From the NCBI GenBank assembly GCA_023131895.1, contig JAGLYZ010000001.1, positions 72,957-136,956 on the forward strand: DNA of 64,000 nt, read 5' to 3'. A model generated the notes under the pieces. That model ran no database searches. It was given only the letters and a program-made list of their open reading frames with translations, and was not told the DNA's origin. Both the position numbers and the translations under genes were made by a program. This document shows, one piece after another, positions 3,822 through 63,685 of this stretch. Origin of the DNA: Candidatus Parcubacteria bacterium. Lineage in GTDB: Bacteria > Patescibacteriota > Minisyncoccia > Minisyncoccales > JAGMDC01. How positions within the stretch are numbered: the stretch's first letter is position 1; each line of letters starts with the position of its first letter.

Positions 3822-6356
3822 ATGAAAATTTTATCAAAACTATTCGGTGATGCTAATGAAAAATATTTAAAAAAGATTCAACCAATTGTTGATGAGATAA
3901 ACAGCCTTGAATTGCAATTCAAGGATTTTTCTAATGAAAAGCTTCGTTCAAAATCAGAAGAATTCAAAGAAGAATTAAAAAAAGGCAAGACGCTTGATGA
4001 TATATTGCCAAGAGCTTTTGCATTAGTGCGAGAGGCGGCAAAAAGAACTTTAAATCAAAGGCATTTTGATGTCCAAATAATCGGCGGCATTGTTTTACAC
4101 CAAGGTAAAATCGCGGAAATGAAAACTGGAGAAGGAAAAACATTAGCTTCTACTCTGCCAATTTATTTAAATGCTTTAACAGATAAAGGCGTTCATGTGG
4201 TAACAGTTAATGATTATTTAACTAAAAGAGATACTGTCTGGATGGGGCAGATATACGACTTTCTTGGGTTGTCAGTTGGGTGCATTGTTCATGATACTGC
4301 TTATATTTATGATCCTAACTTTGGCAAGTCAGAAATCTCAAACAATGAAAGAGATGAAGAAAGAGATATTCTTGGCGGTTTTAAAGTGAGTGAGAGTTAC
4401 TTGCGTCCATGTTCAAGGAAGGATGCATACCAAGCAGATATTACTTATGGCACCAACAATGAATTTGGTTTTGATTGTTTAAGGGATAATATGGTTTATG
4501 AATTAAAAGACAAAGCTCAGCGAGAATTTGATTTCGCGATTGTTGATGAAGTTGATTCAATTTTAATTGATGAGGCTAGAACGCCTTTAATCATTTCAGC
4601 TCCTGATATAGAAGCCACAAAAATGTATTCAGAATTTGCCAGTATTATTCCTAAGTTGAATAAAGAAACTGATTATGAAATTGATGAAAAAATGAAAGCA
4701 GTTACTCTTACTGAACCAGGCATTGAAAAAATAGAGAAAATTTTAGGCATGGAAAATATTTATCAAGAAAAAGGCATTAAATATCTGCATCATTTGGAAC
4801 AGTCCTTGCGCGCCCAAGCGCTTTTTAAAAAAGACAAAGATTATGTGGTGAAACCTGCCTCGCCGCAAGGCGGGGACGGGCAAGTTATTATTGTTGATGA
4901 TTTTACCGGCCGCTTGCTTCCAGGCCGTCGTTATTCCGGTGGACTGCATCAGGCGATTGAGGCAAAAGAAGGAGTTGATGTCCAGCCAGAATCAAAAACA
5001 TTAGCTTCAATTACTTTTCAGAATTATTTCCGGCTTTACAATAAGCTAGCTGGAATGACAGGAACAGCAGCCACTTCAGGCGAAGAATTTGACAAAGTTT
5101 ATGGTTTGGAAGTTGTTATTATACCGACAAACAAGCCAATGGTTCGCGAGGTATTGCCGGATAGAATTTATAAAACAGAAAACGGAAAATTTAAATCAGT
5201 TGTGTCAGAGATTAAGAAAAGGCATGAGACAGGCCAGCCAATTCTGGTTGGCACCACTTCTATTGAAAAGAATGAGTATCTTGGCAAGCTGTTAGATATG
5301 GAAGGAATTCCTCATCAGATTTTAAACGCCAAGCATCATCAGAAAGAAGGAGAAATTATTGCCCAGGCAGGCAGATATAAGGCAGTAACTATTGCTACTA
5401 ATATGGCTGGAAGAGGAGTAGATATAATTTTAGGCGGCAATCCTTTTGATAAAGAGGAGGCAGAAAAAGTTATTAAAAGCAATGGTCTTTGCGTTATTGG
5501 CACAGATAGGCATGAAGCGAGGAGAATTGATAATCAGCTTAGGGGCAGGTCTGGAAGGCAGGGTGATCCTGGCTCTTCCCAGTTCTTTGTTTCTTTGGAA
5601 GATGATTTGCTAAGGATTTTCGGCGGAGAAAGAATTCAGAAAATGATGGAAATGCTGAAAATTCCAGAAGACCAGCCAATTGAAGCCAAAATGGTTTCAG
5701 GAGTTATTGAATCAGCGCAGGAAAAAATTGAGGGAATGAATTTTGATTTGAGAAAGCATTTATTAGATTATGATGATGTTTTAAATAAACACAGAGAGGT
5801 AATTTATAAGAAGCGGAGGGAAATCTTAGAAAAAGCTCAAGATTCAAAACTTAAAGCTCAAATTCTGGAAATAGTTAAAAAACAAGGGAAAACAGAAGCT
5901 GATTATGAGAAAAAAGAAAAAGAAATAGGTGAGGAGAATATGAGAAAAGTGGAAAAAATTATTTCTTTGCGAACTTTAGATTTTATGTGGATGGACCACT
6001 TGGAAAATATGGAATATTTGCGCGATTCTGTGCGTTTGCGTGCTTACGGACAGAAAGATCCTTTGGTGGAGTATAAAAACGAAGGGCATAAGATGTTTCG
6101 CCAGCTTCTTAATATGATTGAAGCAAATATTGTGGAAACCCTTTTTAAAGTGAGTTTAACCAAGCCTGAAGAAAAAACTGTTCCTAGTCCAGGGATGGAA
6201 TTCAGCCATCCTTCAAGTTCTGCTCCAGGAGTTTCTTCTGCCCGGCCTTCAGTCCAAAGGCCTTTAGGTAAAAGAAAAAAAATCGGCAGGAATGATCCCT
6301 GCCCCTGTGGATCGGGTAAAAAATACAAAAAGTGCTGCTGGCCCAAATATGGATAA
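3822..6356 (+). CDS. secA: Preprotein translocase ATPase SecA
   Basis: MKTGEGKTL Walker [42 protein letters not shown], and C-terminal zinc motif [13 protein letters not shown]. Confidence 0.97.
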
Positions 6357-8558: not shown

Positions 8559-8708
8559 TGCTCGGCAATAAAGTTTTAAAGTACCGGCTGTTCAAATCTC
8601 CAGCGAGATTTGCCAGCCTACGCTCTCGCCTCGCTGCTCCGATTTAAAATCGGAGACCATGCCAGCGAGGCTCCGAGAGTTACTTTAAAACCTTATTGTC
8701 TCGCTCAC
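8558..8708. repeat. MITE/REP-like structured element filling the secD-secF spacer
   Basis: Imperfect terminal inverted repeats GTGCTCGGCAATAAAGTTTTAAAGTA (8558-8583) and TACTTTAAAACCTTATTGTCTCGCTCAC (8681-8708). GC-rich nested hairpins inside, including CTCCGATTTAAAATCGGAG at 8637-8655. Confidence 0.5.
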
Positions 8709-15824: not shown

Positions 15825-16176
15825 GAAAGGGCGATGAAAATATATAACATTGCCCTATGATAAAAATAAAAACTATTAAGTTGTGAAGATGCAATTAGCA
15901 AAATGGAATGGTTTTTGGCAGAAGGGAGAGGAATTTTCTGTTTTCGTCTTGATTGATACAGTCATCATTGACCAGTCCTAAAAAATATCAAGATGTTTGT
16001 CAGAATTTTCCAATCTTTCTTCTACCACCCACACTCAGTTCTCTGTTCCGGTGGCACAGTACTTATTTTCTAAAGTTTTCTTTCTTTTCCATTCTTGCCT
16101 TTTGGTGGATAGGTAAGCCCTTAAAACATCGGACATACCCTTGTTTGTGTGCGTAAGACTCCACCAGGTCTTACAC
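15825..16176 (-). ncRNA. Candidate ~350-nt non-coding RNA of unknown class
   Basis: Minus-strand TTGACA (16210-16205), 16-nt spacer, TATAAT (16188-16183). 5' hairpin GTGTAAGAC...GTCTTACGC. No gene downstream on that strand. Weak hairpin plus T-rich tract near 15825-15860. Confidence 0.4.
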
Positions 16177-16254
16177 GTTTTCATTATACACAACTATAAA
16201 ATCTTGTCAACCCCCACTTATAGTTTTGGCAGATTTTATGGCTGAAATTCATAA

Positions 16255-17418
16255 ATGCCTGAAATCAAAAATCTTAAAAAAGCATCTAACAGAATTCTGA
16301 AAGCGATTGAAAATAAAGAAAAAATCATTTTATACGGTGATGCTGATTTAGACGGCACTGGTTCAGTTGTTATTTTAAAAGAAGCTATTGAAGAATTAAG
16401 CGGCAAAGTTTCTGCTGTTTATTTTGTTGACCGAGAAAAAGAGGGTTATGGGATAAACGAGATTGGTTTGGATTTTTTAAAACCATTAGCCCCAGCATTG
16501 CTTATTGGTTTGGATTTAGGCATTACTAATTTTAAAGAAGTAGAAATAGCCAAAAAGATAGGTTTTGAAGTAATAATCATTGATCATCATAAGGTGATTG
16601 GTTCTTTGCCAAAAGCTTCAATTATTGTTGACCCAAAACAAAAAGAAGATAATTATCCCTTTAAAGAATTTGCTGCCACTGGTCTTGTTTATGAATTGGC
16701 CAAAGTGATGCTTAAAGATAAAATGAGTGATTCATTAGATAATCAGTTTTTAGAATTAGTCGCTTTAGCCACTATTGCTGATATGATGATTAGAGAAAAA
16801 GAGAATAAAGAATATATTGAGAAAGGACTTTGGTCGTTAAAATACACAAAAAGATTAGGATTAAAAGTTTTTTTTGAAATTAACTCTTTAAATCCGCCAG
16901 TTGGCGGATTAAAAGAAAGAGAAAAAATTCAAAAAATTGTTTCTGCCTTAAATGTCAGTGAAATTAAAGAACATTTAACAGAAGCATTTTTGCTTTTGAC
17001 TTGCGAGAATAAAAGAAAAGCAAAAAACTTGGCTGAAAAATTCTTGGATAGAAATGAAACAAGACATTTTCAAATAAGAGAAATCACCAGCCAAATAGAA
17101 GAAAAAATATCAGAAAATCCATGTTCAGTGATTTTTGAAGGCGATACTGGCTGGACTAATATTTTAAACGGGTCTGTGGCTTCAAGGATTTGCAACAAAT
17201 ATAAAAAACCAACTTTTATTTACAAGAAAGGAAAAGAAAAAACTACTGGCGCAGTAAGAATGCCTTCAGGAATGGATGCTGTCCAAGCAATGCAAAGCTG
17301 TGAAAAGCTTTTGATTACTTTTGGCGGCCATGCGCCAGCAGCCGGTTTCAGTATTAAAAACGAAAACTTGGAAAAGTTCAAAGAGTGTTTAATAAAATAT
17401 TTTGAGAAATATGAATAA
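16255..17418 (+). CDS. DHH/DHHA1 phosphoesterase, RecJ-like
   Basis: GDADLDGTGS, IIIDHH, and the DHHA1 motif GGHAPAAG. Confidence 0.8.
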   Translation: MPEIKNLKKASNRILKAIENKEKIILYGDADLDGTGSVVILKEAIEELSGKVSAVYFVDREKEGYGINEIGLDFLKPLAPALLIGLDLGITNFKEVEIAKKIGFEVIIIDHHKVIGSLPKASIIVDPKQKEDNYPFKEFAATGLVYELAKVMLKDKMSDSLDNQFLELVALATIADMMIREKENKEYIEKGLWSLKYTKRLGLKVFFEINSLNPPVGGLKEREKIQKIVSALNVSEIKEHLTEAFLLLTCENKRKAKNLAEKFLDRNETRHFQIREITSQIEEKISENPCSVIFEGDTGWTNILNGSVASRICNKYKKPTFIYKKGKEKTTGAVRMPSGMDAVQAMQSCEKLLITFGGHAPAAGFSIKNENLEKFKECLIKYFEKYE

Positions 17419-22808: not shown

Positions 22809-22865
22809 CCAGCCTTCGCTGACTTTGCGGGCTTTGCCCGCCGAAGCCAGCTACGGCTGGCGAAG
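22809..22865 (+). repeat. GC-rich palindromic repeat cluster abutting the tRNA-Gly 5' end
   Basis: CCTTCGC pairs with GCGAAGG. Inner hairpins GCGGGC-TTT-GCCCGC and GCCAGC-TACG-GCTGGC. Shares the GCTACGGC(G/T)GG core with the mnmA inserts. Confidence 0.6.
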
Positions 22866-22936
22866 GCGGGATTAGTATAGTGGCAGTACATGACCTTCCC
22901 AAGGTCAGGGCGCCGGTTCGATTCCGGTATCCCGCT
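22866..22936 (+). tRNA. tRNA-Gly (anticodon CCC)
   Basis: Manual cloverleaf: acceptor GCGGGAT/ATCCCGC, anticodon arm TGACC-TTCCCAA-GGTCA, T-loop TTCGATT. Confidence 0.85.
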
Positions 22937-22940
22937 ATTT

Positions 22941-27170: not shown

Positions 27171-27241
27171 TGCCGGGTCGGCTAATGGTAGGCCAAATGC
27201 CCCTGGAGCATTGAATCTTGGTTCGAATCCAAGCCCGGCAG
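27171..27241 (+). tRNA. tRNA-Gln-like gene (anticodon position reads CUG) with a non-canonical anticodon loop CCCUGGA
   Basis: Acceptor TGCCGGG/CCCGGCA with U1-A72 and G73. D arm GGCT-AATGGTA-GGCC. Anticodon stem AATGC/GCATT. T arm CTTGG-TTCGAAT-CCAAG. C occupies positions 32 and 33 instead of the usual U33. Confidence 0.6.
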
Positions 27242-27243
27242 CC

Positions 27244-27274
27244 GTCATATGCTAAGTCAGGTGATTGAGCCGCC
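27244..27274 (+). repeat. Conserved tRNA trailer, copy A
   Basis: GTCATATGCTAAGTCAGGTGATTGAGCCGCC. Recurs at 30184, 37271 and, partially, 39040. Confidence 0.7.
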
Positions 27275-30140: not shown

Positions 30141-30214
30141 GGAGCAGGCTAGTGAGGCGTTCGGAAGACCGAGGGGACTAGCTGTCATATACTAAGTCAG
30201 ATGACAGAGCCGCC
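30141..30214 (+). repeat. Degraded tRNA-3'-half-like segment plus conserved trailer, copy B
   Basis: ...GTTCGGAAGACCGAGGGGACTAGCT then GTCATATACTAAGTCAGATGACAGAGCCGCC. CTGTCAT/ATGACAG forms a 7-bp hairpin. Confidence 0.6.
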
Positions 30215-30267
30215 CAGCACTGGGTCATTTTTATCTATCGCCAAAGAGGCGATTTTTTGGTTTGGTC

Positions 30268-30295
30268 TTGACTTTTTTGTTTTTAAAATTAGTAT
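30268..30295 (+). promoter_or_regulatory. Promoter of DUF502 cassette 1
   Basis: TTGACT, 16 nt, TAGTAT. Near-identical copy at 37385-37412. Confidence 0.55.
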
Positions 30296-30335
30296 TAAAA
30301 ATACAGCACATAATATATGAAAAAGAGGTGAGAGG

Positions 30336-30857
30336 ATGAAAAAAAGAATAGGAAAATTTGTTTTTGGGGCTTTAAGGACAGGTATTCTATTATTCATCGG
30401 GATAGGAATACTTGGTTTGGTGATAGATTCAATACTAAAGGGAAACAGTTTTTTTTTAGGTCTGATTCCAGGATTGCAGAATCAACCAATACTTGTCAAA
30501 GCAGGTCTTGGGCTTCTGTTCTTAATAGTCATAGGAGCAGTCATAAACTCCTTGATGAGCAAAGGAAAGCAACACTGAATTTTGACAAGATTGACTTCAG
30601 TAGGACATCTTTCAGAAAACCTATTGAATGCTCAGGTAGTAGGGATTGAGGTATTTCCTGGAAAATATCTTTTGGGCTTTACTAATAACGAAGTGATTTC
30701 CAACCCTAAAGTTAATCTTGTTCCAGTGATGGTCCCGAACACACCTGTTCCCTTTACCGGATTTACCTTTTTGGTAGAGAAAGAGTCCCTGAAAGAAATT
30801 GATATGAAGCCCTATGAAGCATTTGCTGTATTGGCAAGCGGAGGATTTTTAAGATAA
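30336..30857 (+). pseudogene. DUF502-family membrane protein interrupted by a single in-frame TGA (30576-30578)
   Basis: The ORFs at 30336-30578 and 30582-30857 are in the same frame. Together they give the DUF502 architecture (IPGLQNQP..., VPNTPVPFTGFTFLVEKESLKEIDM, LASGGF). Confidence 0.6.
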
Positions 30858-37270: not shown

Positions 37271-37307
37271 TCAGCCATCATATACTAATTCAGGTGACCG
37301 AACCGCG
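37271..37307 (+). repeat. Conserved trailer, copy C
   Basis: TCAGCCATCATATACTAATTCAGGTGACCGAACCGCG. Shares CAGCCATC and GTGACCGAACCGCGTAAAAAAATT with copy D. Confidence 0.6.
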
Positions 37308-37322
37308 TAAAAAAATTAAAAA

Positions 37323-37373
37323 ACCTGTTGATGTTTGACATCAACAAACCGTCTCACCAAAGAGGCGGTTTTT
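37323..37373 (+). terminator. Bipartite terminator repeat, copy 1
   Basis: CCTGTTGATGTTTGACATCAACAA hairpin, then ACCGTCTC-ACCAAA-GAGGCGGT plus T6. Confidence 0.6.
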
Positions 37374-37384
37374 TGTTTTCGGAC

Positions 37385-37412
37385 TTGACTTTTTTGTTTT
37401 TAAAATTAGTAT
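37385..37412 (+). promoter_or_regulatory. Promoter of DUF502 cassette 2
   Basis: TTGACT, 16 nt, TAGTAT. The promoter and 5' UTR are nearly identical to 30268-30335. Confidence 0.55.
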
Positions 37413-37452
37413 TGGAAATACAGTACATAATATATAAAAAAGAGGTGAGAAG

Positions 37453-38060
37453 ATGAGAAAAGAAATAGGAAAATTTGTTTTTGGTGGATTGAAGATCGGG
37501 ATAGTAGTGTTATTGCAATAGGACTGGTAGGTTGGATTATAGGCCTGTTATTAATGGGGATTAATCTTTTTTTAAGATTTATTCCTGGCTGGCAGAATCA
37601 AGGTTTATTGATAAAAACAACCGTAGTATTTCTGGTTTTAATTGCTGCGGGAACGGTTATAAACCTTCTATATCACTACCTAAAGATAAAAATAGATGAA
37701 AGAGAGTCAATGCTGATAGATTGGCTAAAAATTCTGTTTTCTTTCAAGCACATCTCTGAGAATATAAAAAAAGGCATACCCTGTATTGCTGAAATAGGAG
37801 GTGTCTATCTTGTAGGATTTGTTAATGGAGAGTATTTAGACAATCCCGATTTACAGAATGTTCCGGTGTTTGATCCTACTAGTCCAAATGTAACTACAGG
37901 AATTGGCCCGATGGTGCCTAAGAAAAAAGTAAAAAAGCTTGATATAACCAAAGCGGATGCAATGACTTACGTTATAAGTGCAGGGTTTGGGAACACAGAT
38001 AAAGCAATAAAAAGCATAAACGACACCATTGAAGAGTATAAAAGACAAAGAAATGCTTAG
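37453..38060 (+). pseudogene. DUF502-family membrane protein paralog with a frameshift near 37507-37512
   Basis: ATG 37453 gives MRKEIGKFVFGGLKIGIVV (homologous to MKKRIGKFVFGALRTGILL of copy 1), then stops. Homology continues in the -1 frame (VIAIGLVGWIIG...IPGWQNQ...DPTSPNVTTG). Confidence 0.6.
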
Positions 38061-39404: not shown

Positions 39405-39629
39405 AGTCAGGAAAATAGTGTCAACTTTGATTTTTCAAAATGCCGTTATACAAAAAATATGTAAATGGATAGAAACGAAAAAAAATATACTCATTAGCAC
39501 TGTCTCATTTTAGCTTAAAACGCATCGACTGAGACGCACCCGCCTTGCCGGCGAGGCAGATCGGTGAAACACTCCCAAAATAGTCGAATTTACCCTTAAA
39601 ACACGGGTTCTAAACCGATTATGGCAGCA
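39405..39629 (+). repeat. Non-coding unit E, paralogous to unit D
   Basis: AGTCAGG...TGTCAAC box. GTGAAACACTCCCAAAATAGTCGAATTTACCCTTAAAACACGGGTTCTAAACCGATTATGGCAGCA aligns with unit D. Carries a GC-rich palindrome insert, CCGCCTTGCCGGCGAGGCAG. Confidence 0.5.
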
Positions 39630-40010: not shown

Positions 40011-40031
40011 TTGTAAACTTTAATCAAAAGA

Positions 40032-40083
40032 CCTGTTGATGTCTGACATCAACAGGACCCATTGCCAAAACGGCGGCTTTTTT
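40032..40083 (+). terminator. Bipartite terminator repeat, copy 2
   Basis: CCTGTTGATGTCTGACATCAACAGG (11-bp stem), then ...GCCAAAACGGCGGC plus T6. Confidence 0.6.
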
Positions 40084-40227
40084 GTATTTTTGGTATTATT
40101 AGAATAATACTCCGGGGGTTGAATTTTATTTCCTTCAAGTTTATACTATAATAAAAGACGAAGTCTATCCTTAAAAAGGTCGAATTAAGAAAAGAATACA
40201 TTTTATAAAATTAAAATAAAAGATAAA

Positions 40228-42836: not shown

Positions 42837-42845
42837 TTCAAAGAA

Positions 42846-42897
42846 CCTGTTGATGTTTGACATCAACAGGCCTCATCGCCAAGAAGGCAAGTTTTTT
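42846..42897 (+). terminator. Bipartite terminator repeat, copy 3
   Basis: CCTGTTGATGTTTGACATCAACAGG, then ...CGCCAAGAAGGCAAG plus T6. Confidence 0.6.
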
Positions 42898-43115
42898 GGT
42901 AGAATATAAAAATAGGCCTAGATTTTGTTTTTTACGATGAAAAATAAGAAGTTGACCAGGAATTTTTATATTAGGGAAACCTTGACTTTTGTTTAGGTTG
43001 AGATAAGGTGAATATACCTTAAAAATTTGGGAGAAATCAGATGAAAGAGATTAGTTTATTGAGAGTTGAATTGTTTTAGCGCTCAGTAAATTAAAAACTA
43101 AAGAGGTGATATAAG

Positions 43116-46949: not shown

Positions 46950-47708
46950 ATGAAAATTATTTCTTGGAATGTTAATGGAATAAGAGCAGCTTGCAAAAAA
47001 GGTTTTTTGAAATGGCTTAGAAATTCCAAAGCTGATATTGTTTGTCTTCAGGAAACCAAAGCATGGCCAGAGCAGTTAGAACCAAATTTACTAAAGCCAG
47101 ATGGCTATTATTCATACTTTAATTCAGCTTTAAAAAAAGGATATGCTGGGTTAGCTGTCTATACTAAAAGAAAACCTTTAAAAATAGAAACCAAGTCAGG
47201 TATAAAACGATTTGACCAAGAAGGGAGAATATTAAAACTTGAATATCCTGATTTTATTTTAGTCAATCTTTATTTGCCTCACGGCGGAAGGCAAAAAGAA
47301 AATATGGTTTATAAGCTGAAGAGCTATGATGAGCTTTTGAAATATTTTAAAAAAATTAATAAAAAGAAAGTAATACTTGTTGGAGATTTTAATGTTGCTC
47401 ATCAAGAGATTGATTTAGCCAGACCGAAGGACAATAAAAATAATACAATGTTCACCTTAGAAGAAAGAAAAAGAATTGATAAAATTACTGAACTCGGCTT
47501 TATAGACACTTTTAGAAAATTTAATAAAAAGCCGGGAAATTATACTTGGTGGCCATATTATAGAAATGCCAGGCAGAGGAATCTTGGCTGGAGAATAGAT
47601 TATATTTTCACTAGCAAGGCATTAACTTCCAAATTAAAGAAAGCATTTATCCTTAAAAATGTTAAAGGTTCAGACCATTGCCCTATAGGAATAGAAATTT
47701 TACGATGA
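46950..47708 (+). CDS. xth: Exodeoxyribonuclease III
   Basis: MKIISWNVNGIRA, CLQETK, GDFNVAH and GSDHCPI. Confidence 0.93.
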   Translation: MKIISWNVNGIRAACKKGFLKWLRNSKADIVCLQETKAWPEQLEPNLLKPDGYYSYFNSALKKGYAGLAVYTKRKPLKIETKSGIKRFDQEGRILKLEYPDFILVNLYLPHGGRQKENMVYKLKSYDELLKYFKKINKKKVILVGDFNVAHQEIDLARPKDNKNNTMFTLEERKRIDKITELGFIDTFRKFNKKPGNYTWWPYYRNARQRNLGWRIDYIFTSKALTSKLKKAFILKNVKGSDHCPIGIEILR

Positions 47709-48388
47709 AAACCATGAAAGAAATTTCTCTTATTACTGTTTATGATAATTACCAAGTTGAGCCGGAATTCAAAACAGGCTGGGGTTTTAGCTGCCTTGTC
47801 CGCCAAAGCCTTGGCGAAAGCGGATTTAATATTCTTTTTGACACTGGCGCTGACAGTCATACTTTATTCAGTAATATGGAAAAGCTAAAGATTGATCCCA
47901 AGAGCATTGATTTTGTTTTTATATCTCATATGCATGGAGACCATACCGGCGGATTGCAGGATTTATTGGAATTCAACAAAGGTTTAAAAGTATATACTCC
48001 TGATTTATTTTCAGAACCAACAAAAATATTTAAAAATGTATATTCCACGGGCTGGTTAGAGGATTGGGTTAAAGAACAATCTTTAATATTAAACACTGAA
48101 AAAGGATTAGTGATTATTACTGGCTGCGCTCATCCTGGAATTATTAATATTATTAAAAAAGTCAAAGACATGCTTAAAAGAGAGGTTTATTTGGTTTTAG
48201 GCGGTTTTCATTTGTCAGGAACCAGTGATTCTGAACTAAAGGAAATTATAGATGATTTTAAGAGGCTAGAAGTTCAAAAAACAGCACCCTGTCATTGTTC
48301 TGGGGATAGATGCCGGGAATTGTTCAAACAAGAATATAAAAATAACTTTATAGAAAACGGAGTAGGGAAAATAATTAATATACAATAA
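47705..48388 (+). CDS. MBL-fold metallo-hydrolase
   Basis: ISHMHGDHTGG (HxHxDH). ATGA overlap with xth. Confidence 0.8.
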   Translation: MKTMKEISLITVYDNYQVEPEFKTGWGFSCLVRQSLGESGFNILFDTGADSHTLFSNMEKLKIDPKSIDFVFISHMHGDHTGGLQDLLEFNKGLKVYTPDLFSEPTKIFKNVYSTGWLEDWVKEQSLILNTEKGLVIITGCAHPGIINIIKKVKDMLKREVYLVLGGFHLSGTSDSELKEIIDDFKRLEVQKTAPCHCSGDRCRELFKQEYKNNFIENGVGKIINIQ

Positions 48389-50789: not shown

Positions 50790-52352
50790 ATGGTAAAGAA
50801 GAAGAAAAACAAAAGAATTTTAAAGAAAAAGAAAAGGATTATAAAGATTATAAAGAAAAAACCAGTAAGAAAGCAAAAAGCTCTTAAAAAAACAAAAAAG
50901 AGAGTGATTAAGGTTAAACCTAAAAAAATAAAAAAGAAAAGACAAAAAAAGATTAAATCAGTAATTCCTGAAAATGCTTATCAGACCAAAATAAAAGTAA
51001 TTGGTATTGGAGGAGGAGGCGGCTCTATTATTTCAGAAATTGCTTCACAATTAAAAAAAGCAAGTTTTACAGCAGCAAATACAGATACTCAAGCGCTTAA
51101 AAGGATAAGCAAAAAATGCAGACGTTTTTCTTTTGGCAGAAGCTTGACAGGAGGTTTAGGATGCGGAATGAATCCTGATTTAGGAAGAAAAGCCGCGCAA
51201 CAGGCAGCAGATGACATAAAAAAGATTTTAGATGGAGCAGATCTTTGTATTTTAGTTTCATCTTTAGGAGGCGGAACTGGTTCTGGCGCTTCTCCTGTTT
51301 TTACTCAAGTTTCCCAAGAGCTTAAAAATATTACTTTTGGGATTTTTACTTTGCCTTTTAAATTTGAAGGCGAAAAGAAATTAAAAATTGCTTTAAATTC
51401 CTTAGAGAAAATGAAGCCGAATTTAAATGCTTTTACTGTGATTCCGAATGAAAAGATTTTTAAAATTATTGATAAAAAAACGCCTTTAAAACAATCTCTT
51501 TCTGCCTTAAACAAGATTTTAGAACAAGGATTAGAGGGTTTGATTGAGATGATTTTTTTGCCAGGCCTGATTAATATTGATTGGGCTGATTTAAAGGTAA
51601 TTTTAGAAGGCAGGGGCAAACTATGTTATTTAAACAGTGTTGAGGCCAGAAGCGATGAAGAGCCGGAAGAAATAGTAATGAGGCTTATCCAAAACCCTTT
51701 AAGCGAATATAATCCTGAAAAGGCAGATAAGATTTTATACAATATAACTTCTGATAAGGATTTGAAAATGGATACAGTCCAGCAAATCAGCAAAGCTATT
51801 ACTGGAATTAATAAGAGAGCGAAAATAATTTTTGGCATTTCCCAGCATCCTAATTATAAAAAGAAAATAAGAATAACTTTATTAGCCACTAGCGATGAAA
51901 AAAAAGAGCTAAAGATTAAAAAGAAACAAAACCAAAAAGTAAAAATAGTATCAGAACCGGAAGAAAAACCAGCCGCCTCTAAAAAGGCGCCCGCTTCACC
52001 TCGGCGAAGACGAGGCGAGAGCCTAGCCCCTCCGGGGAGGAAACCAGAAAAAAAACTAAAGAAAAAACAAAAGCCAAAAGTAGCTAAGATCATTTTAGAA
52101 AAACCAAAAGAAAAAATTTTCAAATTAAAGAAGAAAAAACCAAAAAAGAAAAAAGCAGTACAAAGAAAGGTTAAAAAAGCAAAGAAAAAGAAACCGCCTG
52201 CTAAAAGAAAGATAAAAAAACAGGAGAAAACGAGAAAAAATGCTTTGCAATTAAAAAGAGAAGCAGAGGAAGCTGAAAAAGAGCTCTTAGAGGAAGAAAA
52301 AAAATGGGACATCCCTGCTTTTCTTAGAAAAAACACAGGCAATAATCAATAG
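50790..52352 (+). CDS. ftsZ: Cell division GTPase FtsZ with a lysine-rich N-terminal extension and a long basic C-terminal linker
   Basis: KVIGIGGGGGS, LGGGTGSGASPV, and the C-terminal peptide WDIPAFLRK. There is no alternative start between 50790 and the GTPase core. Confidence 0.9.
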   Translation: MVKKKKNKRILKKKKRIIKIIKKKPVRKQKALKKTKKRVIKVKPKKIKKKRQKKIKSVIPENAYQTKIKVIGIGGGGGSIISEIASQLKKASFTAANTDTQALKRISKKCRRFSFGRSLTGGLGCGMNPDLGRKAAQQAADDIKKILDGADLCILVSSLGGGTGSGASPVFTQVSQELKNITFGIFTLPFKFEGEKKLKIALNSLEKMKPNLNAFTVIPNEKIFKIIDKKTPLKQSLSALNKILEQGLEGLIEMIFLPGLINIDWADLKVILEGRGKLCYLNSVEARSDEEPEEIVMRLIQNPLSEYNPEKADKILYNITSDKDLKMDTVQQISKAITGINKRAKIIFGISQHPNYKKKIRITLLATSDEKKELKIKKKQNQKVKIVSEPEEKPAASKKAPASPRRRRGESLAPPGRKPEKKLKKKQKPKVAKIILEKPKEKIFKLKKKKPKKKKAVQRKVKKAKKKKPPAKRKIKKQEKTRKNALQLKREAEEAEKELLEEEKKWDIPAFLRKNTGNNQ

Positions 52353-62497: not shown

Positions 62498-63685
62498 ATG
62501 AAAAAGCAATCTGCTGACTGGCGGAGAAAAACCAGAGTAGTAGTAGCGATGTCTGGAGGAGTTGATTCTTCAGTAGCAGCTGCTTTATTAAAAAAACAAG
62601 GCCTTGAAGTTCAAGGTGTTTTTTTAAATCTTTTTGATTCAGAAAGTTTTAAAGAATCAGAAAAAAGAGCTAAAAAAATAGCAGGAATTTTAGAAATTCC
62701 TTTTTTTGTTTTAGATTTAAGAAAAGAATTTAAAAAGAAGATAATTGATTATTTTATTAAAGAGCTTCAGCAAGGTAAAACACCAAATCCCTGTGTTTTA
62801 TGTAATAAAGAAATTAAGTTCGGATTTTTTTTAAAAAAGCTTAGAGAACTAAAAATTAGTTTTGATTTCATCGCCACCGGGCACTATGTAAAACTTAAAA
62901 CAAAAAACAAGAAAGCCAAAACTACAAGTCAAAAGTCAAAAGCTACTTACAAATTATTGAGAGCTAAAGATAAAGAAAAAGACCAATCATATTTTCTTTG
63001 GATGCTTAATCAAAAACAATTGAGGCAGATTTTATTTCCTATTGGAAATTATACTAAACAAGAGGTTAAAAATTTAGCTAAGAAATTTAGATTGCCGGTT
63101 TTTTCTTCTGAATCACAGGAAATTTGCTTTATTGGAAAAGATTTAAATGGCTTTCTAAGAAAGAATTTTAAAACTAAAAAAGGCGATATTATAAATACCA
63201 AAGGAGAAATTATCGGAGAACATCAAGGATTGTGCTTCTATACAATTGGCCAGAGAAAAGGCATAGGAGTTGGTGGAGGACCCGCCTCCGCTGAAGCTAC
63301 GGCGGGCAAGCCATATTATGTCTTAGATAAAGATATAAAGAAAAATATTTTAATTGTCACTAAGAACGAAAAGGACTTGCATAAAAAAGAATTAATAGTC
63401 AAAAAAATTAATTGGATTTCTGGAAAAGAGCCCTGCCTTCGCCAAGGCTACGGCGGGCAAGCAAAATTTTCTATAAAAATTAAAGCAAAAATTCGTTATC
63501 GCCACAAATCCGTTGAAGCAAAAATTACAAGGAAGTCGGACTTCCTTAAGGAAGTCCGACTTCCTAAAACTTTCAAAGAATATAAAGTGATTTTTTCACG
63601 CTCTCAGCGAGCCATTACTCCAGGCCAATCAGTAGTTTTTTACCAAAGAAACGAACTCTTAGGCGGCGGAATCATAAAAAGTTAA
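62498..63685 (+). CDS. mnmA: tRNA 2-thiouridine(34) synthase MnmA, carrying three palindromic in-frame inserts
   Basis: VVVAMSGGVDSSVAA PP-loop, NPCVLCNKEIKF, ATGHY, DQSYFL and ITPGQSVVFY. Confidence 0.93.
   Translation: MKKQSADWRRKTRVVVAMSGGVDSSVAAALLKKQGLEVQGVFLNLFDSESFKESEKRAKKIAGILEIPFFVLDLRKEFKKKIIDYFIKELQQGKTPNPCVLCNKEIKFGFFLKKLRELKISFDFIATGHYVKLKTKNKKAKTTSQKSKATYKLLRAKDKEKDQSYFLWMLNQKQLRQILFPIGNYTKQEVKNLAKKFRLPVFSSESQEICFIGKDLNGFLRKNFKTKKGDIINTKGEIIGEHQGLCFYTIGQRKGIGVGGGPASAEATAGKPYYVLDKDIKKNILIVTKNEKDLHKKELIVKKINWISGKEPCLRQGYGGQAKFSIKIKAKIRYRHKSVEAKITRKSDFLKEVRLPKTFKEYKVIFSRSQRAITPGQSVVFYQRNELLGGGIIKS

Follow-up and report, generated by a model that had tools for sequence, protein, structure and literature searches.

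The 21 bases at 4854-4874 of a 64,000-nucleotide stretch of DNA from Candidatus Parcubacteria bacterium (contig JAGLYZ010000001.1; the whole stretch is referred to as the window) are a derived in-frame insertion in the gene of the essential protein SecA. The insertion is interpreted, with a probability of about 0.8, as a recently acquired copy of a short GC-rich repeat, named family B here, that spreads at the DNA level through AT-rich genomes of the Patescibacteria type. The copy in SecA is presumably translated and tolerated. A sister repeat of 30 nt, named family A here, appears to behave alike in MnmA. The original prediction, made from the sequence of the window, had described a Rickettsia-like colonisation of essential genes by one family of palindromic repeats. 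That picture holds, but several families had been lumped together in it.

The host gene secA is located at 3822-6356 on the plus strand and encodes a full-length protein of 844 amino acids with a 100% match to the SecA of Candidatus Parcubacteria bacterium. The insert at 4854-4874 (plus strand), CCTGCCTCGCCGCAAGGCGGG, consists of 17 G+C bases out of 21 (81%), against a background of 37% for the secA gene and 33.5% for the 64-kb window. The insert is in frame and encodes PASPQGG, which corresponds to residues 345-351 of SecA. In the MAFFT alignment of the 120 closest SecA proteins, the PASPQGG segment is exhibited by the window protein alone, and the three relatives that are 88, 87, and 85% identical have DYVVK-(E/D)-GQVIIVDD without the insert. 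A short K-D/N-G turn is found at this place in 114 of the 120 close homologs and in all solved structures. The DNA alignment with the three closest relatives (82-88% nucleotide identity) exhibits one gapless 21-bp indel exactly at 4854-4874. The GC-rich, 21-nt, in-frame insert of the original prediction was thereby borne out, as a clean indel that is absent in the 119 other closest SecA proteins.

The PASPQGG segment has no counterpart in the aligned SecA structures solved for Thermotoga, Bacillus, Mycobacterium, and E. coli. In the AlphaFold model (mean predicted local distance difference test score, pLDDT, of 67), residues 345-351 form the turn between the strands 341-344 and 354-358, and the pLDDT is below 50 at residues 349-351. 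According to this model, a beta-hairpin of the preprotein-binding domain has PASPQGG at its tip. Three assembled contigs are on record with exactly the SecA protein of the window. Small lineage-specific indels, such as SVQRP, were also observed in the C-terminal linker of SecA (region 6150-6300).

The insert had also been described as hairpin-forming, which is correct, but the hairpin is statistically unremarkable. A 4-bp CGCC/GGCG stem with a GCAA loop is possible within a weaker outer stem, and the predicted folding energy is about -5 to -9 kcal/mol, which varies with the flanks. The corresponding z-scores are -1.4 to -2.0, where 8-20 of 200 composition-matched shuffles are equally stable. 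The z-scores of two copies of family A in mnmA, which are described below, are -0.2 and -0.4. Only two segments fold exceptionally well, namely the leader of tRNA-Gly (z -4.4) and the spacer between secD and secF (z -4.6). Energy alone gives the SecA insert no special status. The insert stands beyond chance because its sequence repeats elsewhere, not because of its folding energy.

Family B was defined as CCTGCCTCGCC(G)GCAAGGCGGG, and a copy was counted as a member if it matched the 21/22-nt consensus exactly or nearly so. SecA has the 21-nt form. The 22-nt form, TCTGCCTCGCCGGCAAGGCGGG, is found on the minus strand at 39539-39560, where it is intergenic; relative to the SecA copy, one base is substituted and a G is added. 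In reverse complement, the SecA insert reads CCCGCCTTGC-GGCGAGGCAGG and is nearly identical to 39539-39560, which reads CCCGCCTTGCCGGCGAGGCAGA. This copy, listed by the original prediction as unit E (39538-39559), is a sibling of the SecA insert. Assembled metagenomes were scanned with the pattern CTGCCTCGCC-N0-1-GCAAGGCGGG, and at least 126 exact copies were identified on at least 120 contigs, where 114 copies lie on contigs with a GC content of at most 55%. The back-of-envelope chance expectation for a 20-base GC-rich word on such contigs is far below 1. The sibling copy and these metagenome copies support the predicted membership of the SecA insert in a dispersed, GC-rich, palindromic repeat family.

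The copies of family B exhibit sharp boundaries at unrelated sites, and most of them are intergenic while some are intragenic. Some metagenome contigs have two to three copies within 12 kb, with unrelated flanks. The unit was taken to be CCTGCCTCGCC(G)GCAAGGCGGG because C precedes the core in 107 of 108 non-redundant copies. Beyond that, the flanks share a preference for R...Y and nothing further, so that the consensus including the flanking preference is (R)CCTGCCTCGCC(G)GCAAGGCGGG(Y). Divergent copies are rare among the metagenome matches listed. At least part of family B resides in relatives within Patescibacteria, since several of its metagenome contigs encode proteins that are 50-87% identical to window proteins. 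Family B is virtually absent from predicted viral contigs (one match, on a contig of 72% GC), and only partial, chance-level matches were found in the plasmid collection.

The distribution of the two forms follows the reading frame. The 21-mer contains zero stop codons in all six frames. On AT-rich contigs, 12 of the 21 copies of the 21-nt form lie inside long open reading frames (ORFs), compared with 10 of the 93 copies of the 22-nt form (Fisher p = 1.4e-5). Nine of those 12 ORFs read the insert as PASPQGG, and the proteins are otherwise unrelated. The 22-nt form predominates between genes, and the form inside genes is the 21-nt one, usually read as PASPQGG. Such an intragenic excess of the 21-nt form is a prediction of a purifying filter that acts on DNA-level insertion.

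The same codon of SecA was hit in other lineages. The SecA encoded by an unrelated JGI contig (L312) is 68.8% identical to the window SecA and more distant from it than all 120 listed homologs, and the same 21-mer, without a mismatch, lies between its corresponding K and D codons. The insert is identical at 21 of 21 positions where the flanks are roughly 70% identical, as counted from the printed sequences (P ~0.001). A third SecA lineage (P0028-32 and P0039) exhibits a different GC-rich hairpin, TCCGCC-CCGGAT/CCGTCT-GGCGGA, at this codon. Nealsonbacteria-like SecA genes (L127 2807-2824 and L128 1157-1174) have an 18-nt TCCGCC-N6-GGCGGA segment there, with the peptide SAPDGG or SAPSGG. No further copy of this 18-nt hairpin was found in 2.5 Mb of collected sequence.

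Family A was defined as the 30-nt unit CCCGCCTTCGC-loop-GCTWCGGCGGG-CAAG (CCCGCC-TTC-GC-loop-GC-TWC-GGCGGG-CAAG). It corresponds to the core given by the original prediction, CCNGCCTYCGC...GCTACGGCGGG, and is represented by the covariance model R1. The word GCTACGGCGGG has 8 matches in the window at up to two mismatches, compared with 1.6 expected from shuffles. In species-representative genomes, the pattern CCCGCCGWAGC-N3-12-GCGRAGGCNGG was found at 120 loci or more. Among the matches listed, the gap is 4 nt in 67 of 125, and 55 of these 67 gaps are TAAA, CAAG, CGAG, or TGAA; positions 12 and 15 covary (T-A vs C-G, p = 6e-14). Longer gaps form small palindromes of their own, for example GCGC-TTC-GCGC and GCCC-TGC-GGGC, with inner stems that vary in length. 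These features set the pattern matches apart from noise. Judged by eye, the unit of family B resembles that of family A minus the central hairpin, CCCGCC-TT-GC-GGCG(A)GG-CAGG, with the CAGG tail kept. Just 3 of 100 family-B loci also have family A among the matches listed.

R1 was run over the window with filters off. It recovered the two mnmA segments and the tRNA-Gly leader at 41-48.6 bits. These predicted copies form a true DNA-level family, and the two mnmA segments are read in different frames. The view that all of the predicted copies belong to a single family failed. The SecA insert (4854-4878, plus strand) reached only 12.6 bits with an E-value of about 1.2, where members reach 41-49 bits; it was rejected as a member of family A and belongs to the separate 21/22-nt family. 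The predicted copies in ftsZ (51969-52040) and the secD-secF spacer have no R1 match either. A possible degenerate copy of family A was found on the minus strand at 47795-47824 (21.6 bits, E 0.012) within an ORF of the metallo-beta-lactamase fold (47678-48388). Homologs of this ORF are only 4 residues shorter at that place, and a clean insert was rejected on that ground.

Exact matches to the family-A pattern were listed in metagenome-assembled genomes (MAGs) that bear the labels Azam-, Colwell-, Shapiro-, Morani-, Peri-, and Saccharibacteria and Paceibacterota. Further MAGs with such matches bear the labels Babeliales, Acidobacteriota, Alphaproteobacteria, Bacteroidota, Planctomycetota, Verrucomicrobiota, and Nitrospirota, and predicted viral contigs contributed 76 stretches. 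No full match was found in the phage collection, and GC-rich plasmids gave only partial, chance-level matches. Of the 35 copies at loci below 53% GC, 19 fall within open frames that span 150 codons or more, with five of the six frames used. Adjacent inverted units are found at a few loci (L009, L037, and L125). The composite at tRNA-Gly is a nested palindrome, and the SecA and mnmA copies are single units.

The window mnmA gene has two copies of family A, both 30 nt long and on the plus strand. Site 1 (63281-63310, R1 48.6 bits) is read as PASAEATAGK, and site 2 (63432-63461, R1 46.4 bits) is read in a different frame as (P)CLRQGYGGQA. Site 1 is a clean 30-bp indel relative to the related locus L130, and site 2 is a clean 30-bp indel relative to both L129 and L130. 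The junctions of both sites are ambiguous by 1-2 bases (C or CC). The copy at site 1 is identical to the L129 copy at 29 of 30 positions where the gene is 82% identical (p = 0.02). A separate assembly of this species in ENA has both inserts as well. The ortholog alignments proposed with the original prediction thus confirmed presence and absence of the inserts for SecA and MnmA alike. Both MnmA inserts are placed between strands, in loops with a pLDDT below 50; in the structural models of both proteins, the inserts thus fall in loops.

Among 121 MnmA sequences, site 1 is filled in 32, mostly with PAFAKASAGK, and its pattern of presence requires at least 21 parsimony changes on a neighbour-joining tree, compared with 28 for random labels. 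Seven of the sequences are filled at site 2, and seven at a third site. The third site is filled in relatives in the reverse orientation (VVFY|LPAEALAKAG|KG), and in one relative a family-A unit in reverse orientation is nested in the loop of another unit there. Other insert peptides were observed at these hot spots in P0135 and P0144 (site 3) and in P0154 (site 1): LPRSSPKAMVWG is found in three proteins, and P0154 has a double unit, PAFAKASAYAKATADKSAGK. These sequences suggest further element families and nested insertions. Downstream of mnmA, a gene-free gap of about 4 kb was observed in L129 (12352-17129) and L130 (13099-17336), and the gap in L129 holds a LAGLIDADG ORF (16011-16487). This gap may be an rRNA gene with a homing-endonuclease intron.

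Four copies of family A adjoin tRNA genes (window 22809-22937, L057 6314-6412, L032 2667-2772, and L024 6570-6676). In the window, the strongly folding composite at 22809-22870 adjoins tRNA-Gly(CCC) at 22865-22937. Its family-A element (22833-22870, minus strand, R1 41.0 bits) has a long inner loop and overlaps the first 6 nt of the tRNA gene. Overall, the GGCGGG/CCCGCC end of the element shares 4-6 nt with the start of tRNA-Gly (in the window and at a Colwellbacteria locus) and of tRNA-Pro (at a Saccharibacteria locus), and at the fourth copy it covers the final 6 nt of tRNA-Trp. Upstream of the window tRNA-Gly, the 46-nt composite is 93-95% identical to sequences next to tRNA genes at two Saccharibacteria loci. 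The adjacency to tRNA genes could reflect a target preference or an effect on the processing of the tRNA leader.

The proposed mechanism is as follows. A very short, non-coding, GC-rich, quasi-palindromic repeat (family B) would be copied to unrelated sites by an enzyme that acts in trans and takes the hairpin or palindrome as its recognition feature. Our best guess for the enzyme step, offered tentatively, is a single-strand activity of the HUH type like that of the transposases (RAYTs) associated with repetitive extragenic palindromic (REP) sequences. Selection would then retain only inserts that fall in surface loops and whose length in bases is divisible by three. Such a filter, possibly combined with a target preference, would account for the repeated hits at one SecA codon and in three MnmA loops.

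Several observations weigh against the spread of family B as a mobile DNA-level repeat. No transposase or mobilising gene was found among ten ORFs at 27-42 kb of the window, and no protein family recurs next to family-A copies at the loci listed. The SecA, mnmA, and family-B sites exhibit neither target duplication nor terminal-repeat architecture, family B has no palindromic extension, and its flanking direct repeats are not above those of shuffled pairings. The hairpin energies of the intragenic copies are no better than those of composition-matched shuffles. The orientation of family B relative to the local coding strand is 48 vs 36, which is no bias, and the same holds for family A (13 vs 12). 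This lack of bias counts against a strictly lagging-strand single-strand mechanism, because a bias would be expected there. Only two copies of family B are found in 64 kb, and no copy was found in the loci of relatives (L001-L006). The copies are almost invariant with a conserved asymmetry, which fits a selected functional site equally well. That the SecA insert is translated is what we infer.

Other explanations were weighed against these data. The copies could have arisen by template switching or by break repair that used another copy, primed by GC-rich microhomology of a few bases at the ends and with no transposition. This explanation is possible but unlikely. It agrees with the junction ambiguity at both mnmA sites, with the absence of target duplications and orientation bias, and with units nested within the loop of another unit. 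It also agrees with the overlap between the GGCGGG end and the initial 4-6 bases of tRNA genes beginning with GCGGG or CGGG at three loci, and between the family-A end and a tRNA 3' end at the fourth. The two codons after the SecA insert are GAC GGG, where relatives have GAY/GAA GGT, and the flank therefore resembles the family tail GGGCAAG. However, chance alone would produce microhomologies of 1-2 bases, the family-B flanks share nothing beyond R...Y, and random microhomology does not suffice to explain why two divergent SecA genes have the insert at the same point. We consider it still less probable that the repeats are functional sites under selection, namely DNA or RNA motifs for a conserved host factor (RNA processing or stability, chromosome organisation, or DNA uptake), with genic copies as by-products. 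Their extreme uniformity and conserved asymmetry in many hosts, the stronger conservation of the insert than of its coding flanks (21/21 vs roughly 70% in SecA and 29/30 vs 82% in mnmA), the repeated position of family A at tRNA gene ends, and its presence in MAGs of many phylum labels and in predicted viral contigs would be explained in this way. Copies in SecA and MnmA loops in several frames and both orientations are unexpected for a positional function. The patchy presence and absence among close relatives and the lack of orientation bias relative to transcription also count against this explanation. In addition, scans of Rfam (gathering thresholds and E-values) returned nothing at any copy.

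Two further explanations are very improbable. The SecA segment as an ancestral loop that was lost in relatives would agree with the two other lineages that have an insert at the same codon, but it is contradicted by the short turn that prevails among the homologs and solved structures, by the GC content of the segment within an AT-rich gene, and by its identity to a repeat at unrelated loci. An artefact of assembly or binning has even less to recommend it. The length of 21 nt is a common k-mer size, and all data come from metagenome assemblies. However, such an artefact is made unlikely by the record of the exact SecA protein on three contigs, and the same insert is found in the unrelated JGI contig, the mnmA inserts are reproduced in the separate ENA assembly, and the inserts are always in frame and in loops. 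The acquisition of a spreading family-B copy thus remains the preferred reading. A stronger version of it is doubtful, in which the repeats represent a new class of targeted mini-insertion with a machinery that recognises sequence or structure and inserts ultra-short (21-30 nt), near-invariant palindromes precisely and without target duplication. If true, this machinery would repeatedly hit the same codons of essential genes (SecA K|D-G and three MnmA loops) and tRNA gene ends. The palindromes would be common to Patescibacteria and, for family A, also to bacteria with several other phylum labels, and they would be more than decaying REP-like debris filtered by selection.

Two GC-rich blocks of the window belong to neither family A nor family B. 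The first is a 69-nt block in the FtsZ linker (51972-52040, plus strand), which is polymorphic within the species. A strain that is 98.5-99% identical at the nucleotide level (L132) has 24 AT-rich nt where the window ftsZ has these 69 GC-rich nt. The block consists of three small hairpins and is flanked in the window by the direct repeat AAACCAG. On this sequence comparison, the block is real and recent; the predicted polymorphism of FtsZ was found, but in a block outside both families. No related copy was found by BLAST. The N-terminus of FtsZ (50790-51000) has a long lysine-rich extension with indels among close relatives. The second block is a strong hairpin (8596-8684, plus strand, z -4.6) in an enlarged secD-secF spacer of 166 nt, compared with 5-67 nt in relatives. 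No relatives of this block were found by BLAST. The search with a covariance model of the core, as proposed with the original prediction, accordingly recovered mnmA and tRNA-Gly and left out SecA, ftsZ, and secD-secF.

The intergenic copy of family B at 39539-39560 falls in a region of longer repeats. A 35-nt segment (27240-27274) starts in the last bases of tRNA-Gln (27171-27243) and is repeated downstream at 30180-30214 and 37273-37307. A 142-nt repeat is found at 30253-30394 and 37370-37511. A 61-nt repeat is found at 37316-37376, 40024-40084, and 42838-42898, and it contains the palindrome CCTGTTGATGT-TGACATCAACAGG. Their arrangement suggests tandem units bounded by copies of the tRNA 3' end, perhaps integrated islands. 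No integrase was found among the ten ORFs checked at 27-42 kb.

The motif CCCGCCTTCGCGAAGCCCGCTTCGGCGGGCGAAGGAAGGTC recurs at the loci L008, L026, L034, L036, L038, L064, and L119 and in the viral stretches L181, L189, and L194. Loci with this motif are titled Alphaproteobacteria, Phycisphaerae, Pirellulales, and Ignavibacterium, and at least L008, L034, and L038 belong to the largest cluster of shared ORFs (12 loci). The motif has no Rfam match; it could represent a cis-regulatory RNA not yet described, whose fit to the search pattern is coincidental. A recurrent gene beside the copies of family A was rejected: the sole sizeable ORF cluster belongs to a separate sub-motif, ...GCGAAGCCCGCTTCGG...CGAAGGAAGGTC, which is a chance match to the pattern.

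The genomes of Patescibacteria are tiny and streamlined, and no description of a repeat family was found for them. In the literature searched, which left most subscription journals outside, neither sequence, nor the encoded peptides, nor such repeats in Patescibacteria are described; the statement of the original prediction that this is undescribed in such genomes thus agrees with our search. According to the present results, active-looking palindromic mini-repeats in these genomes remodel essential proteins such as SecA, MnmA, and FtsZ (the FtsZ block being outside families A and B). This is a second, independent, and very widespread case of the colonisation of coding sequences, which was previously known mainly from Rickettsia. 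The peptide markers PASPQGG, PAFAKASAGK, LPAEALAKAG, and RRSFSEGG explain many odd low-complexity patches in metagenome proteins. The recurrent identical insertions at one codon make targeted insertion and a selective filter distinguishable with existing metagenomes, and the presence/absence polymorphisms are usable as strain markers.

Rickettsia palindromic elements are dispersed palindromic repeats that are inserted in frame in housekeeping genes, in surface loops and with many open frames. RPE-1 is about 100-150 nt long, and most insertions are lineage-specific and vertically inherited. The repeats described here are similar in that they are dispersed, with many open frames, and form in-frame inserts in surface loops that are absent from orthologs, in the small AT-rich genome of a host-dependent bacterium. 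They differ in their length of 21-30 nt, in their host (a Parcubacteria MAG of Patescibacteria), and in the occurrence of the same short sequence in many divergent hosts and recurrently at the same codon. The relationship is an analogy, a likeness of behaviour that claims no membership.

Short GC-rich palindromic elements of mobile appearance, the GC clusters, are also found in the very AT-rich mitochondrial genome of yeast, occasionally in frame (var1). The likeness to these clusters consists of short GC-rich palindromes in an AT-rich genome that are occasionally in a coding frame. However, the clusters belong to eukaryotic organelles, their sequence is unrelated, and other mechanisms have been proposed for them.

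MITEs (transposable elements of the miniature inverted-repeat type) have terminal inverted repeats derived from insertion sequences and target-site duplications, and they are usually 50-500 bp long (PMC10969869; Coxiella MITEs, PMC5896051). The repeats in this work are likewise small, non-autonomous, and dispersed, and they sometimes extend or interrupt ORFs. They differ in that filled sites exceed empty ones by exactly 21 or 30 bp, with a junction ambiguity of at most 2 nt.

The analogy with Rickettsia drawn by the original prediction is apt but not unique, since in-frame palindromic repeats are known from Rickettsia and intragenic REPs have been reported in Opitutus, Thauera, Xanthomonas, and others (PMC3733652). 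The GTAG/CGTC REPs are imperfect palindromes of 20-40 nt with an unpaired GTAG or CGTC tag at one end (PMC3733652). Their intragenic copies encode about 10 residues and occur in several phyla, where Patescibacteria is not among the hosts (PMC3733652, Di Nocera et al. 2013). The repeats described here share with them the imperfect palindromes of 20-40 nt in many copies, mostly intergenic and some in frame, that are single, paired, nested, or grouped. However, family B has no terminal GTAG or CGTC tag and its flanks exhibit only R...Y. In family A, GTAG (complement CTAC) is confined to the internal loop and to copies whose variable W position is A. Among the ten window ORFs and the neighbours of family-A copies, no RAYT gene flanked by the repeats was found. 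REPINs are inverted REP doublets that are vertically inherited with one cognate RAYT per genome (PMC3116915, Bertels and Rainey 2011). Both systems consist of short, non-autonomous hairpin repeats in which near-identical master copies dominate without target duplication, whereas single units dominate here and the same unit is found across many hosts. By analogy, and with no sequence relationship as far as tested, the repeats of families A and B appear to work like the Rickettsia palindromic elements and the intragenic REPs.

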